UHGV virus genome: UHGV-0322013
Length of the DNA: 31,976 bases
Reading direction: 5' to 3' (one strand)
From: a virus
The first letter of the stretch is position 1. Every line of letters begins with the position of its first letter. Below are positions 1-15,065 of this stretch, piece by piece. The position numbers and the translations under genes were made by a program. Below the pieces are notes generated by a model. That model did not search any database. It was not told the DNA's origin and saw only the letters and a program-made list of their open reading frames with translations.

Positions 1-174
1 GAATTCAGCACGATTATGAACGAGCACGAATGGCCTGCTGATGCTATTGAAGTGCAACTGGCACATGCCAACGGCGGATCTGTGCGCGGGATTTACAACC
101 ATGCTCAGTATCTCGATAAACGCAGAGAAATGATGCAGTGGTGGGCGGACTGGATTGATGAAAAGGTAGAGTGA
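1..174 (+). CDS. int: Tyrosine integrase, C-terminal fragment (P4/IntA-type); the 5' part of the gene lies beyond the window
   Basis: Frame 1 reads through from base 1 to TGA at 172-174: EFSTIMNEHEWPADAIEVQLAHANGGSVRGIYNHAQYLDKRREMMQWWADWIDEKVE, matching the conserved C-terminus of P4-family integrases as recalled. Window starts at GAATTC. Confidence 0.8.
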   Translation, partial: EFSTIMNEHEWPADAIEVQLAHANGGSVRGIYNHAQYLDKRREMMQWWADWIDEKVE

Positions 175-198
175 GCGACCTTAACAACTATCGAATAG

Positions 199-247
199 CA
201 CAAAGCCTTGCAGTCCAGTACAAAGCTTTGTGTTCATCATTTTTGTC
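199..247 (+). terminator. Inverted repeat (8-bp arms CACAAAGC / GCTTTGTG, 18-nt spacer) followed by a T-rich run, just downstream of int; possible int terminator and/or part of attP
   Basis: Read directly: cacaaagc-cttgcagtccagtacaaa-gctttgtg then ttcatcatttttgtc. Confidence 0.3.
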
Positions 248-302
248 TCATCAACCACAGTAAGTCATCGATCGATTAAGAATTTGATGATAGTTTTGTC
301 AA

Positions 303-2219
303 CTATAGCAATCTTATTTCTCCACCATGAACATTTATTGGCGTCATAAGAAGTGGACTCTCTACTACGACAAACCCATTTTCATTACTTATAACCGGGG
401 TCTTTGATTCATCAGATGTTGAAATAACCATCGCTTTATCTCCTGCCACAACACCTAACCAAAACCATGTCCCTAAGTTATGATCTATCTTCAATGCTAA
501 AAAAATAAGCTGTGTATCAGAGTATTGTATTTGCGTTGTCCATTTTGCTCTAGTGTCTGAACCTGAAACCTCTGTAGAAACACTTGCGCCAACTGTATGT
601 GCAGCGGAGCTACCGTTACTCATTTTACCGTTAACAAGTTGCGGGTGGTATTTGCTTGTTTGTTTTGCTTTTCCTATCACTGAACTAAGACCTAAATCCG
701 GGCTATAGAACACTATTGTCTGTTCCACTGTGCTGGCTTCTTTTGCCACTACTGCCGGCAATGTAGTCCCTCCGGCCTTAATGTCAGTTTGCCAGTGAAT
801 ATCTGAAAGATTGTATGGAGATCCCTCGTTAATGTCCCACCAAACCGCTCCGCCACCTATACGGTTATTAGGCATAATTCTTACGTTGGTATTGTCGTCG
901 AATGCACCAAACATTTTCATACTGCTACCGTAAATCCAGCAGTTATCCAGCGTAATGTTATTGGCGCTCGTTGCTATAACCCCATACACATTGCTTTCGT
1001 TTGACTCTATGTAGCATGAATCAAACTTGATGTTATATGCACCTGCAATCCAAACACCGTGAGTACGAAAACTTTCAATACCACAGTTGAACAGCGTAAG
1101 TGCCTCTACCGCACCTTCAAACTTAAAACCTACATCACACTCTCCTGTGTGAACCGATACTAATGGCTGAATGTTGCATTCATCAGTAAAGTGATAGCGA
1201 TGCAGACCAGTAGTATATGTACCATTGCACTGAAGATTTCGAAATAAAGAGTAAAAGCAGCGCTGAGTGTAAACCAACTGCTGGACATTTACTCCAACAA
1301 TATCTGTAACCTCGCATCCAAATACATGATTCCGCAAACGTAACCCCTGATAGAAATTAATCAGTGTGGCATTGCGAATTATTGTTCCTATGGTTAGATA
1401 CTCTTCACCAGACTTTCCAAATACAGAAGATATAGCACCACTAGAAGCTATATAACCAGTCTCAATGAATACGTTATTTTCGTCGGAAGTATCGTCGCGG
1501 CCTACGATGCGAGCGCCCTGAAAATCGATCACTTGCACCCGACGATTAGGGAAATTAGTTGCTTCAATGTCAGATGGAGATTCTGAAGCCAACACATAAA
1601 CTTTACCAGCGATGTAATAGCTTTTCCACGGAGTGGCTACTACTTTAACACCACCTGCACGCCACGCAGCAATCAGAGCGGCCTGAAATGCGTATGTGTC
1701 GTCATGCTTGCTTGGGTTATCTTCTCCGTTTAATAAGTAGGCATCGCCATACGCACCAAAGTCATCTACATTAATTTCCTGATTAAAGTAGTCAGATGCT
1801 TTTCTGGTTGCAGCATCAGCATAAGGCTTCTTAAATGAAATATAAGAAGCACCATCATCAGATGATAATCGCGAAGAAAGTTGATCAGGGTCATACTTCA
1901 GCACATTAGGAAAATAGAATTGCCGCGCTCCATACGCATCATAAACAGCCATAGAGTGGCCTTGCACAGTTACGAACTTGGCAATCTGTCCGTTATATAC
2001 CGGATATCCGGCAGCGTTAATGATGATTGGTTGCGAAACAGGAACGCGAGAGCCGTCTTCGTTCTCTACATAAACCTGAACCCGGTTTTCAGGATTTACC
2101 GGGTCAGTGTCAATTTTCCCGATATAAATTTCGCCATTGGCTACGGCTTTAAAAGAACGCGCCATAGTGAAGAGTTGAGAAGGCATCGATACAATCACAT
2201 TGGCTGTAATGTCTGTCAT
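303..2219 (-). CDS. Tailspike protein: P22 gp9-like N-terminal head-binding domain with a divergent C-terminal receptor-binding (probable polysaccharide depolymerase) domain
   Basis: 638-aa ORF; the N-terminal ~110 aa ([29 protein letters not shown]...[13 protein letters not shown]...NVLKYDPDQ) match the P22 tailspike head-binding domain from memory; the rest is unrelated to P22 gp9. RBS GGAG upstream of ATG. Confidence 0.9.
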
Positions 2220-2275: not shown

Positions 2276-2300
2276 ATAAAAAAACCCAGCCTAAGCTGGG
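2276..2300 (-). terminator. Rho-independent terminator between ant and the tailspike gene (P22 T-ant analogue)
   Basis: Minus strand reads CCCAGC-TTAG-GCTGGG followed by TTTTTTT. Confidence 0.6.
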
Positions 2301-2319
2301 TCGTTGCGTTGGTTATCTG

Positions 2320-3827: not shown

Positions 3828-3845
3828 AGGTGGGTCCTATTTATT
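3812..3845. terminator. Bidirectional rho-independent terminator between convergent mnt and the lipoprotein gene
   Basis: AAAAAACCCACC-TGAA-GGTGGGT then CCTATTTATT; the mnt stop codon TGA is the hairpin loop; A/T runs on both sides. Confidence 0.6.
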
Positions 3846-4263
3846 AGTCTTGCTTTGTTGATGGTATAAGAGATGCGTTTGCCTCTTTTGGCTTCAAGGT
3901 ATACATTCCACCATTAAATGGATCTACAGCAAGCCAACCAATTAACCCACCAAACACAAGGTTCCCACCAATATACCAACCATTAGCATTGGCTTTGATT
4001 GGCAGGGTAACTGGTTCATACCCATCCTTCTCCATAGTGATCTGGTAGCTCTTTTTGCCAAAATAGCTACCATCTGACTTGGCGAGTGTTACACCTTGTG
4101 GGGTCTTACCTTGCGCAACAATCACACCTGACTCATCTTTTACCTTAAAGCTCGCGCCAGAAGGATTGCTGTTCACTTGCACAAGTTGCGTTTCATCACC
4201 AACAATAGTTGCGCACCCAGATAACATGATAACGCCAGCGACGACGCTAATAATCCTCTTCAT
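3844..4263 (-). CDS. Lipoprotein of unknown function (PEGA-like beta domain, Gly-rich hydrophobic C-terminus); accessory gene in the P22 sieA position
   Basis: Track ORF 3844..4275; likely start at MKRIISVVAGVIMLSGC (signal peptide with lipobox LSGC). The mature part shows a PEGA-like pattern (VQVNSNPSGASFKV...GKTPQGVTLAKSDG...DGYEPVTLPI) and ends GGNLVFGGLIGWLAVDPFNGG. Confidence 0.7.
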   Translation of the reverse strand: MKRIISVVAGVIMLSGCATIVGDETQLVQVNSNPSGASFKVKDESGVIVAQGKTPQGVTLAKSDGSYFGKKSYQITMEKDGYEPVTLPIKANANGWYIGGNLVFGGLIGWLAVDPFNGGMYTLKPKEANASLIPSTKQD

Positions 4264-4380
4264 ATCAATTTCCATATTAAAAAAAACGGAAACATCCTAA
4301 TGACAAACCATTCAAATGTGAAGTAGGCAAAAGATGTTTACTTTTTTCATGGTATCCTGCTCAAAACTAAGGAGGTTGGT

Positions 4381-4704
4381 GTGTATACAACAGTTATCGT
4401 GATAGCTATCGCACTCATTGTGGTTCAGTATCAACTGGCATCTTTAAAACAAAAGATATTTGACCTCAAGACTGAGAACGAAGCACTTAAAAACTCAATA
4501 AAAGATGAGAAGAACAAACTATCATTCACTATATCTGATATTGAGCAATCCATTGAAATTATTGAGAATAATATTAACAGACTAAAAAAAGAAGATATTC
4601 ATGAAATCAATAACAATATCAAGGATTTGAAATCTTGGATTAGGAATGTAGGACAAATCTCCACATCAACACGAGATAAGCTCAATCCATCCATGGATGA
4701 CTAA
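4381..4704 (+). CDS. Small membrane-anchored coiled-coil protein, unknown function (AT-rich accessory gene)
   Basis: 107-aa ORF with GTG start 5 nt after AAGGAGG; N-terminal hydrophobic helix (YTTVIVIAIALIVVQY) then heptad-like K/E/N-rich sequence; very AT-rich; on the opposite strand to the flanking late genes. Confidence 0.6.
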   Translation: MYTTVIVIAIALIVVQYQLASLKQKIFDLKTENEALKNSIKDEKNKLSFTISDIEQSIEIIENNINRLKKEDIHEINNNIKDLKSWIRNVGQISTSTRDKLNPSMDD

Positions 4705-12268: not shown

Positions 12269-13564
12269 TCACGCAGTCTGGTTAGGCAGACCAACACCAA
12301 TTGCCTCTGGTCGTACAGCACATGCTGAATACCACACAGCAATACGGCACTTACCAGACAGAGTGTTGATATCACCCTGCGTTGCGAAGATGCCGTTAAC
12401 ACCAATACCAGGAATGCTGAAGGAAGACGTTTTCATGCCAGCAAACAGTTCATGGGTTACCGGGATAGGCTGAGACAGCAGACGGATTGAGTCATCAGCC
12501 CAGAACACGTTAGCGGTAGTTGTTGCCACGTTCAGAACGTTTACCGGAGTGGTATCAGCAAGAGAGGTGTTTACGTTAGCGTAAGCCTTCTCTTCTTTTG
12601 TCAGTGACGCGTCATCAAGCGCAATCGGCTTCGGCGTGATTTCGATGTGAGTACCATCGATCACACGGGTGATTGAGAAAGTCGCATCATCAGTCAGCAC
12701 GTTCTTCGCCATCTGAGACAGGAATTTCACACCAGTGAAGCTGATTTTGTCGCCGCGCTTAAATCCGGTGGTGGAGGATACGGTCACCGTTGCAACACGG
12801 TTGTCGACGTTCTCTTTGTTACCATCGGTATCAAGAGTGTATGCCTGCGGCTTAAACTTCTGCGCACCAGAAACAGTTACACCAGTAGCGGTTGACTTGG
12901 TAACTGCCGGAAGTTTCGGTGAGCGAAGAATTTCATCAAAGCCAGCAATCTGACGCTGAATAGTACCGTTGCGATACGCTTCTTCAGGAACGCGCCCGAA
13001 GATGTCACCATCTACCAGGTTGCGGCCTGCTTTGCGGTAATCATCAGGGTTCAGGAAGTAACTGATGCCCATATCGCGGTTTAGCTCACGGGAGAACATC
13101 AGGCGCTCTGCATCAGACACAAAATCCCAGCCAGACAGGCCAGTAGATGGACCAATTGCGCGGGTATCGTGAACAACAAGTGAGCCCATTTCAGTTGCCT
13201 GTTTGGCAATTGCTGACTCAATGTTATTCGCCAGTTTTTTGGCGGATGCCTGGATGCGGCGACGGTAAGAACGCTCATCACGCAGATCATCTGCACGAAG
13301 CTCGAAGAAATCGTTATCCGGATCGCCCATGTTGCATTTCACGGACAGCTCCAGAATCCCGGTTGCGTTGCCAGTTAAATCCCAGCCAGTCTGAGTTGGC
13401 GCTTCCTGCTCAACAGGCATCCACACGGTATTGCTTGAACGTTGCATGGATTCTGCCGGAGGGGTGTATTTTGTCACTTTGGACGCCATTGGCGTCAGGT
13501 TCTGGACGGTTTCGATGATTTCATCGATAGCGTAAGTAACTAACTGCCCTTCTTTGAGAGTCAT
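12269..13564 (-). CDS. Major capsid (coat) protein, P22 gp5-like
   Basis: 431 aa; many blocks match P22 coat as recalled ([55 protein letters not shown]). Confidence 0.95.
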
Positions 13565-13631: not shown

Positions 13632-14153
13632 ATGAGCATGGAACTGAATGAATACTTCGAATACCGCGATGGTTCTTTGGTTTGGAAAGCCAGAAGCTCT
13701 GAATTTTTCAACAACAAAAAGAATCGCAACTATCACAACGTTTGGAATGCAAAACACGCTGGGAAAGTTGCTGGTCTTTTAGAAAGCAATGGATATATCC
13801 GCATAAGAATTAACGGCATTAAGTGGCTAGCACACCGCATCGTATGGGTAATGTTTAACGGAGATATTCCAGAAGGCATGGAAATTGACCATATAAATGG
13901 GATTCGCCACGACAACAGAATTGAAAATCTTCGTCTTGTGAAAAAATCAGCAAACCAAAGGAATAGAATCAAACTATCTAAAAATAACTCCAGCGGAATA
14001 TCTGGAGTTTACTTTTGCAACACGCGGAAAAGATGGATCGCTCATAAGCGACTGCTTAATGCAAGAGTGCAAAAAGTATGTTCTTCATTCGAAGAGGCGA
14101 AAGAAGTAATCAGAAAGTTTGACGAGGAAAACAACATCACGATATCGAAATAA
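13632..14153 (+). CDS. Free-standing HNH homing endonuclease with AP2-type DNA-binding region
   Basis: 173-aa plus-strand ORF with the HNH core EIDHINGIRHDNRIENLRLV...NQRNR and a following SGISGVYF...KRWIA segment; AT-rich; paralogous to the ORF at 23275..23799. Confidence 0.85.
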   Translation: MSMELNEYFEYRDGSLVWKARSSEFFNNKKNRNYHNVWNAKHAGKVAGLLESNGYIRIRINGIKWLAHRIVWVMFNGDIPEGMEIDHINGIRHDNRIENLRLVKKSANQRNRIKLSKNNSSGISGVYFCNTRKRWIAHKRLLNARVQKVCSSFEEAKEVIRKFDEENNITISK

Positions 14154-15065
14154 TTATCGAATTCCTTTATTCAGTTGCGCCTTGAGCTTGCGGTATGTCT
14201 CTACATCCCCTTTGTTTGCTGCCGCTTCCATCTGCTTTTCAATCGCAGAAATATTTGCAGCAACAGCGTGTCCCTGAATGGGTTCATCAGGTAACGGGGC
14301 TTCTGAAACAGGCTTGGCTCGAGGCTTGAGAGTTAAACGTTCTGACAGTCGAGTGAGTTCAATCAGCGCGGATTGCCCGTCCATCGCCAGCAACTGGCGT
14401 GTTTTCTCAGGATTAGCACCAAGGTGATACATGAGAGCAGCGGATTTCTCCGGGAAGAGGCGCATGATGTCGGCACCGACTGCTGGCGGCACCAGTTGCA
14501 TGAATGCATCCTCTTTCTCCTGATAGTCAGGGATATTGAGCTTTTCCGCTGCGTCGTAGTGCTTACGGGCTGCCTCGACGTATTGCGCTGATTGCTGGGT
14601 GAACTCCTGAGTTTTGCGACCCTGCTCGGCGACAGCCTGGCTTCGTGCGTCCATAGCCTTGATCTGCCATTCACTGTTTGCCTGCTGGAAGGCAGCCAGT
14701 GCGCGGCTCTGGTCATAGTCGTACTTAGCCAGCGCATCTTCGGAAAGATAATCGTTAGGGTCTGGTTGTTTTGGTAACTCAGGGTTCACCCGCAGGTGCT
14801 CCGGCAACTCCCCACGCTTAACCGCTTCCATCTGCTGCTCAAGCTCACGCTGGCGTTTGCGTTCGATGCGGCGACGGGCAAATTCAGCATTAGTTGCCGG
14901 GTATTGTTTTGGTTTCTCATCGTCTTTCAGGACAATCTCGAAGCCTTCTTCCTGACCTGCGTTGTCGTTGGCATTATCGACAACTAAGCCATCAGCAGAT
15001 GCCGCTGCATGATTGCCGGGCAGGGTTAATTCTTCAGAAGCCTGAATGTCGGTGGTTTGGTCCAT
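14154..15065 (-). CDS. Scaffolding protein, P22 gp8-like
   Basis: 303 aa as in P22 gp8, with long near-identical stretches ([99 protein letters not shown]). Confidence 0.95.

Follow-up and report, generated by a model that had tools for sequence, protein, structure and literature searches.

Which hosts a P22-like phage can infect is set by the receptor domain of its tailspike, and such domains are in use as serotyping and anti-virulence reagents. The virus genome UHGV-0322013, whose whole stretch of 31,976 nucleotides is called the window here, carries at 303-2219 on the minus strand a gene whose product an earlier note, made from the sequence alone, had described as a tailspike with a conserved P22-type head-binding domain and a different receptor-binding domain. 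The locus raises the question of what kind of protein this receptor domain is and which glycan it recognizes.

The tailspike gene and its prophage

The window is a P22-like (Lederbergvirus) prophage. Upstream of the tailspike gene and on the same strand lie ant, arc/mnt, the gp16, gp20 and gp7 ejection-protein genes, the tail-needle gene and gp10/gp4-type genes, in which the Pfam domains P22_AR_N/C (ant), Arc, P22 gp16, Inj_translocase, P22_gp7, Phage_tail_NK, Phage_stabilise and P22_Tail-4 were found. The tailspike gene thus closes the P22-type virion module and comes after immI (mnt/arc/ant), and the DNA of the flanking region is 86-96% identical to CUS-3, N7, epsilon34, HK620 and P22. A public prophage contig (L002) matches the first 12 kb of the window at 99.99% identity; in it the tailspike gene is followed by an IntS-type integrase gene, tRNA-Arg (argW), yfdC, mlaA and fadL; a full-length int followed by tRNA-Arg (argW) and yfdC is also present in E. 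coli EC6. The chromosomal flank of L002 is 100% identical to E. coli genomes, indicating that the host is E. coli. The phage appears to be a temperate P22-like one, inserted at argW in this species, with this gene encoding its tailspike. The features at this end of the window are:

16-174, plus strand: 3' end of an IntS-type integrase gene, convergent with the tailspike gene (ORF list)
190-302, minus strand: non-coding DNA just 3' of the tailspike gene and moving together with it (nucleotide similarity to other copies)
303-2219, minus strand: tailspike gene, 638 codons plus stop (stop codon at 303-305; ORF list)
1881-2219, minus strand: N-terminal head-binding (tail-anchor) domain, residues 1-113 (Pfam PF09008)
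2283-2302, minus strand: terminator-like hairpin between ant and the tailspike gene (pattern scan; 8-bp stem with 5 G-C pairs, then a T run)

The tailspike gene is an uninterrupted open reading frame from ATG to stop, in which GGAG (2228-2231) precedes the ATG by 8 nt, and a protein identical to its 638-residue product (P0002) is present in a public protein collection. The Pfam Head_binding profile (PF09008) aligns with residues 1-113 over all of its 113 positions (E 5.3e-64), and this anchor domain is 70% identical to P22 gp9 over 115 aligned residues and 87% identical to Sf6 gp14 over 114. When all PDB chains were searched with the protein sequence (phmmer), gp9 aligned at residues 1-118 only and Sf6 gp14 at 1-162 only, and no match at E < 1 was obtained past residue ~170. 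Nucleotide matches to the gene in about 1100 complete E. coli genomes cover its positions 1-340 only. The end of this similarity at about nucleotide 340 places a recombination joint directly after the YDPDQ motif, whose position was checked by translation (Q113, codon 1881-1883). At the other end of the gene, nucleotide similarity to the copies in Salmonella (L005) and in other E. coli (L014 and L019) runs ~105-113 nt beyond the stop codon. The division drawn in the earlier note, with ~110 P22-type residues followed by ~520 others, is therefore accurate, since both the anchor profile and the nucleotide joint end at Q113 and the gp9 match stops five residues later. Its further statement that the second part is unrelated to the P22 endorhamnosidase holds for the sequence but not for the fold class, as both are right-handed beta-helices. 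The protein is an ordinary modular tailspike with a conserved P22-type anchor and a different beta-helix receptor domain. Residues 1-113 would fix the spike to the phage tail, and they may be nearly constant because they must fit a conserved tail machine.

The gap between the tailspike gene and int is ~130 bp (175-302), and no gtrABC, oac or neuO-type gene was found between the two. In contrast, Sf6, CUS-3 and the argW prophage of E. coli HKUOPY1 have a seroconversion gene at this place (compare L013 7542-10149 and L016 4406-5407). The phage studied here apparently does not seroconvert its host from the tailspike-int locus.

Elsewhere in the window, the coat (12269-13564) and scaffold (14154-15065) genes of the P22-like head module are separated by an HNH endonuclease gene of 173 codons on the other strand (13632-14153, plus strand; Pfam HNH_3 E 4e-22, phrog_99), which coincides with a local dip in GC to 0.45 and looks like a free-standing homing endonuclease insertion. 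Two further genes occupy the position of P22 sieA, between the gp16 homologue and mnt: one at 3844-4275 (minus strand) encodes a predicted lipoprotein of 143 aa with a weak PEGA-domain match (phrog_6823), and the product of the other at 4381-4704 (plus strand) has 107 aa, a hydrophobic segment near its N-terminus and a coiled coil (phrog_5962). A role in superinfection exclusion, or as morons, may be considered for both.

Fold and conserved residues of the receptor module

From residue ~114 onward the protein would form a self-contained, horizontally exchanged receptor module composed of a neck, a beta-helix and a C-terminal beta-sandwich, for which the following features were delimited:

1770-1880, minus strand: neck or linker, residues ~114-150, start of the mobile receptor module (boundary seen with other anchors; model helices; hhalign)
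660-1769, minus strand: right-handed parallel beta-helix, residues ~151-520, the presumed glycan-binding and glycan-cleaving domain
1005-1076, minus strand: candidate catalytic residues on adjacent helix turns, E382 (1074-1076), Y403 (1011-1013) and E405 (1005-1007) (conservation; codons checked by translation)
306-659, minus strand: C-terminal beta-sandwich, residues ~521-638 (model strands at 545-637)

An AlphaFold2 monomer model was built from an alignment of 78 homologues and reached a mean pLDDT of 83.9, with most of residues 150-520 above 90. It contains helices at 111-126 and 141-154, then stacked short beta strands up to ~520, and an all-beta C-terminal domain. In a Foldseek search against the PDB, Sf6 tailspike entries came top (E 1e-14 to 2e-7, TM ~0.45-0.55, 12-13% identity in the receptor part), and the nearest solved neighbours of the predicted pectin-lyase-like helix were phage tailspikes and depolymerases. 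The beta-helix that the earlier note had presumed for the receptor part is thus supported by a high-confidence model and by its neighbours in fold. The predicted structure settles the fold class as a right-handed parallel beta-helix, a class which by itself does not decide between hydrolase, lyase and binder chemistry.

Conservation among the homologues, which extend down to ~20% identity, was considered residue by residue. Y403 and E405 are invariant, E382 and N349 are each 99% conserved and Y323 is 94% conserved. E382 and E405 are 23 residues apart, approximately one helix turn, and carboxylates spaced by one turn are the usual catalytic geometry in beta-helix glycosidases. E382 and E405, together with Y403, are the most likely candidates for catalytic residues, judging from this conservation pattern and spacing. 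Locating the active site through homology to Sf6 was abandoned, since hhalign aligns residues 123-233 with Sf6 gp14 135-223 and gives no alignment past 233, and the fold searches came without residue alignments. At least 90% of the homologues keep G531, T562, I564, G589, G615 and R636 of the C-terminal domain, suggesting that the helix and the C-terminal domain travel as one unit.

A search of the tailspike against NCBIfam gave no match, and BFVD returned generic tailspike matches only. The PHROG label "colanic acid degradation" was discarded as a functional clue because the family so labelled consists of O16-targeting spikes with receptor domains 24% identical to the one studied here.

Known relatives and exchange of the module

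Tailspikes of P22, Sf6 and HK620 are endoglycosidases, and that of CUS-3 carries an endosialidase. Among these proteins the nearest solved relative is Sf6 gp14 (endorhamnosidase; PDB 2vbk, 4urr, 7ukj), which besides the 87% identical anchor shares homology through the neck and first helix turns to residue ~233 and has the same layout of a beta-helix followed by a C-terminal beta-sandwich. It is nevertheless not a close relative, as the identity and TM values of its receptor domain given above indicate. The P22 gp9 gene likewise follows ant behind a terminator and its product shares the fold class, but the lack of sequence similarity past residue 118 places the protein studied here outside the gp9 receptor-domain family; the target of gp9 is the Salmonella O:4 O antigen (PMC11990801). 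The tailspike of CUS-3 is similar up to residue 193 only, and a Pfam search for endosialidase-type features (sialidase domain, Peptidase_S74 chaperone) gave no match. The O16-specific tailspikes of the Lederbergvirus phages Huey, Dewey, Louie and CurroJimenez (phrog_8280) also combine a P22-type anchor with a pectin-lyase-like helix, and the phrog_8280 profile matches residues 1-432. The receptor domain is 24% identical to that of Huey over 218 of 519 residues, which is below the threshold for one receptor-domain subtype of 30% identity over 60% coverage used by Pas et al. (PMC10408124). The protein is therefore not of the O16 subtype and presumably has another substrate. Anchor domain, gene position and predicted beta-helix fold are all those of a P22-like tailspike.

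Copies of the protein are common. When 5.8 billion proteins were searched through a word index, more than 100 of length 638 aa with receptor domains 92-100% identical were obtained, which come from P22-like prophages of E. coli and Salmonella enterica and are labelled "phage tailspike protein" at NCBI, on hundreds of contigs in all; some occur on many contigs (P0021 on 198, P0023 on 184 and P0024 on 64). Those of Rubislaw and E. coli prophages (for example EHC92944.1, with cluster representatives P0012, P0021, P0023, P0024 and P0071) share the architecture and have receptor domains 95-100% identical, and among these near-identical tailspikes no member with a tested substrate or a solved structure was found, so that the protein is present in databases already, though uncharacterized. 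The Salmonella copies differ in their location. Those of the P0023 carriers (L005-L010) are the last prophage gene beside hutI/hutG/hutC with no adjoining integrase gene, unlike the copy studied here, which lies beside int at argW. In the Salmonella variant P0093 an integrase gene again adjoins the tailspike gene.

The receptor module (residues ~114-638) is also fused to at least four other anchors, namely PF18668, a T7 gp17-like anchor and two further N-termini. Modules 76-87% identical stand behind quite different N-termini in proteins of 650 aa; one such fusion type is encoded at the end of the tail module in siphovirus genomes of ~45 kb with PolA, SNF2 and DUF1833 genes, and another carries the PF18668 anchor. 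More distant relatives, 35-59% identical, have T7 gp17-like and other anchors, and a P22-anchored version in Proteus prophages is 53% identical. Among the annotated phages, the receptor domain is matched best by XXQ42883.1, a "tail fiber protein" of phage vB_EcoP_P64441 (Slopekvirinae), which is 68.7% identical over residues 142-638, has another N-terminal anchor and belongs to a lytic podovirus that also encodes an endosialidase. With this best phage match uncharacterized and the receptor domain unmatched in the PDB, the searches returned no tailspike of known specificity with high full-length identity, in agreement with the earlier note. Modular exchange of anchor and receptor domain has been described by Pas et al. 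(PMC10408124), and a conserved anchor with a swapped receptor domain is a textbook phenomenon that will not surprise the specialist.

Taken as a general mechanism, we are highly confident that an anchor is joined here to an exchangeable, glycan-specific and probably hydrolytic beta-helix that sets the host range. If it resembles those of P22, Sf6 and HK620, the spike is presumably trimeric. Its helix would hold the host's O-antigen chains lengthwise and, acting as an endoglycosidase, cleave them, which would bring the virion down to the outer membrane.

Host distribution and candidate substrate

The earlier note had also stated that the substrate cannot be read from the sequence. This is correct for the sequence alone, but the distribution of hosts yields a candidate. 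Casjens and Grose in 2016 reportedly linked 18 Salmonella tailspike types to O antigens. One passage of PMC10408124, citing Casjens and Grose 2016, has it that the tailspike type of Lederbergvirus prophages follows the O antigen of the host. Rubislaw is the only serovar named among the Salmonella carriers (2 records; receptor domain 97% identical), and this serovar is O:11 (PMC3464306). In E. coli, DNA of the receptor domain is present in only 3 of 5426 complete genomes, with the following copies and galF-gnd clusters:

EC6: intact copy, receptor domain 88% identical in amino acids; O60-type wzm/wzt cluster
HKUOPY1: pseudogene remnant at argW; O75 cluster
2017.06.05CC: C-terminal remnant in a decayed prophage; O91-family cluster

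The O75 cluster connects the two genera. The closest relative of the O75 Wzy outside E. coli belongs to a Salmonella protein cluster with named members from Rubislaw and Aberdeen, both O:11. Comparison of the O75 (L032 1-11858, E. coli TD225-C4) and O:11 (L035 5172-17687, Salmonella) O-antigen clusters showed that they are collinear, with the shared order rmlB-rmlD-rmlA-rmlC-GT-wzy-GT-GT-manC-manB-wzx between galF and gnd and with identities of 56-65% for the three glycosyltransferases, 68% for Wzy and 63% for Wzx. As a rule, E. coli and Salmonella clusters that are collinear at such identity specify repeat units that are the same or almost so, and the shared unit would, from its genes, contain rhamnose and mannose. 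In the literature searched, no statement of an O75 = O:11 pairing was found. The Rubislaw carriers, the O75 remnant and the homology of the clusters mean that two independent host observations converge on one glycan, and since O75 accounts for only 60 of the 5426 genomes, such convergence by chance alone would be rare. We consider it slightly better than an even proposition that the substrate is a rhamnose/mannose O antigen common, in identical or closely related form, to E. coli O75 and Salmonella O:11.

The carriers of closely related receptor domains are, however, not uniform. Besides O:11 and the O75 remnant they include the intact copy in an O60-type strain and the remnant in an O91-family strain, the only intact copy among complete E. 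coli genomes being that of EC6, with its O60-type cluster of the ABC-transporter class, and no intact copy was found among the 60 complete O75 genomes. Three galF-gnd types in three E. coli carriers would fit a glycan-degrading tailspike with a receptor other than the O75/O:11 antigen, such as other or several O antigens, a capsule, the enterobacterial common antigen or an exopolysaccharide. This reading agrees with the view of Pas et al. (PMC10408124) that a receptor-protein subtype shared by several serogroups probably has a target other than the O antigen, and with the pairing of the related vB_EcoP_P64441 protein with a capsule-specific endosialidase. We regard it as rather unlikely but deserving of weight. 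Against it, two of the three E. coli copies are pseudogene remnants: those of HKUOPY1 and 2017.06.05CC, both in decayed prophages, may predate a switch of the O antigen. The EC6 copy, at only 88% identity, may have diverged in specificity, and the match between Rubislaw, the O75 remnant and the cluster homology would be improbable by chance when O:11 is one of many groups and O75 is as infrequent as stated above.

Other alternatives concern the chemistry. That the beta-helix only binds its glycan, or modifies it without cutting the chain, for example by deacetylation, is improbable in our estimate, because the Glu, Tyr and Glu on adjacent turns are 99-100% conserved in 78 homologues down to ~20% identity, which suggests catalysis, and because the characterized P22-like spikes are endoglycosidases (P22, Sf6, HK620) or an endosialidase (CUS-3) (PMC11990801). 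A polysaccharide lyase acting by beta-elimination on a capsule or O antigen that contains uronic acid seems very improbable. The fold by itself cannot tell a hydrolase from a lyase. The sugar pathways encoded in the O75 and O:11 clusters are, however, those of rhamnose and mannose, and a step specific to uronic acid is absent, from which it follows that their unit is probably neutral and beta-elimination impossible. The whole explanation, in which the tailspike of an argW-integrated Lederbergvirus carries an exchangeable receptor module that acts as an endoglycosidase on the O75/O:11 O antigen, is in our judgement probably right. We propose more tentatively, at somewhat less than even confidence, that the module represents a so far uncharacterized Glu-Tyr-Glu endoglycosidase family specific for the shared O75/O:11 O antigen.

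Several other routes to the substrate were tried. O60 was rejected because the Wzm of EC6 has no close Salmonella relative (its best full-length match is 82% identical, in Klebsiella), so that the O60 type cannot explain the Salmonella carriers; the O60-type cluster is found in only 3 complete E. coli genomes. The serotype of the host of the window could not be taken from its flank, as the strains 100% identical over 8.5 kb beside argW are O86, O75 and O21 and hence uninformative. Matching tailspike-bearing contigs with O-antigen genes by assembly accession gave no overlap, in look-ups that collapse similar places.

Two of the carrier lineages show further peculiarities. In EC6 (L012 21253-23564 and 45680-46933), IS5 splits the colanic-acid manC and IS1 truncates a glycosyltransferase gene at the end of the O60-type cluster, so that the glycans on its surface may not be those that its genotype predicts. 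The strain 2017.06.05CC (L014) and CP029212.1 (L019 1-21917) belong to one E. coli lineage with a decayed P22-like prophage that lacks the head genes, and within this lineage some strains have kept an intact tailspike gene whereas in others it is truncated. The decayed prophage adjoins IS1 as well as a defence island that carries genes for FRG, DEAD-box helicase/HamA (Hachiman-like) and AbiJ.

If the O75/O:11 assignment is true, the near identity of the protein across genera would reflect recent traffic of phages or modules between E. coli and Salmonella, enabled by the shared receptor. The example itself shows how the hosts of a tailspike, considered together with the homology of their O-antigen clusters, can narrow down its substrate. 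Should the assignment hold, the protein would be a ready-made reagent for O75 typing or decapsulation, and together with its relatives in lytic phages a candidate for O75-targeted phage design. O75 includes the pandemic ST1193 lineage, and no O75-specific tailspike was found in the literature searched. O75 is also among the serogroups of an ExPEC conjugate vaccine in clinical development (PMC9614730).

In vB_EcoP_P64441 (L001 1-7494), the spike is an endo-N-acetylneuraminidase (K1 capsule) and the 68.7% identical receptor protein is encoded separately, after the lysis genes. The ST1193 clone is O75:K1, so that a dual specificity of this phage for K1 and O75 would make sense.
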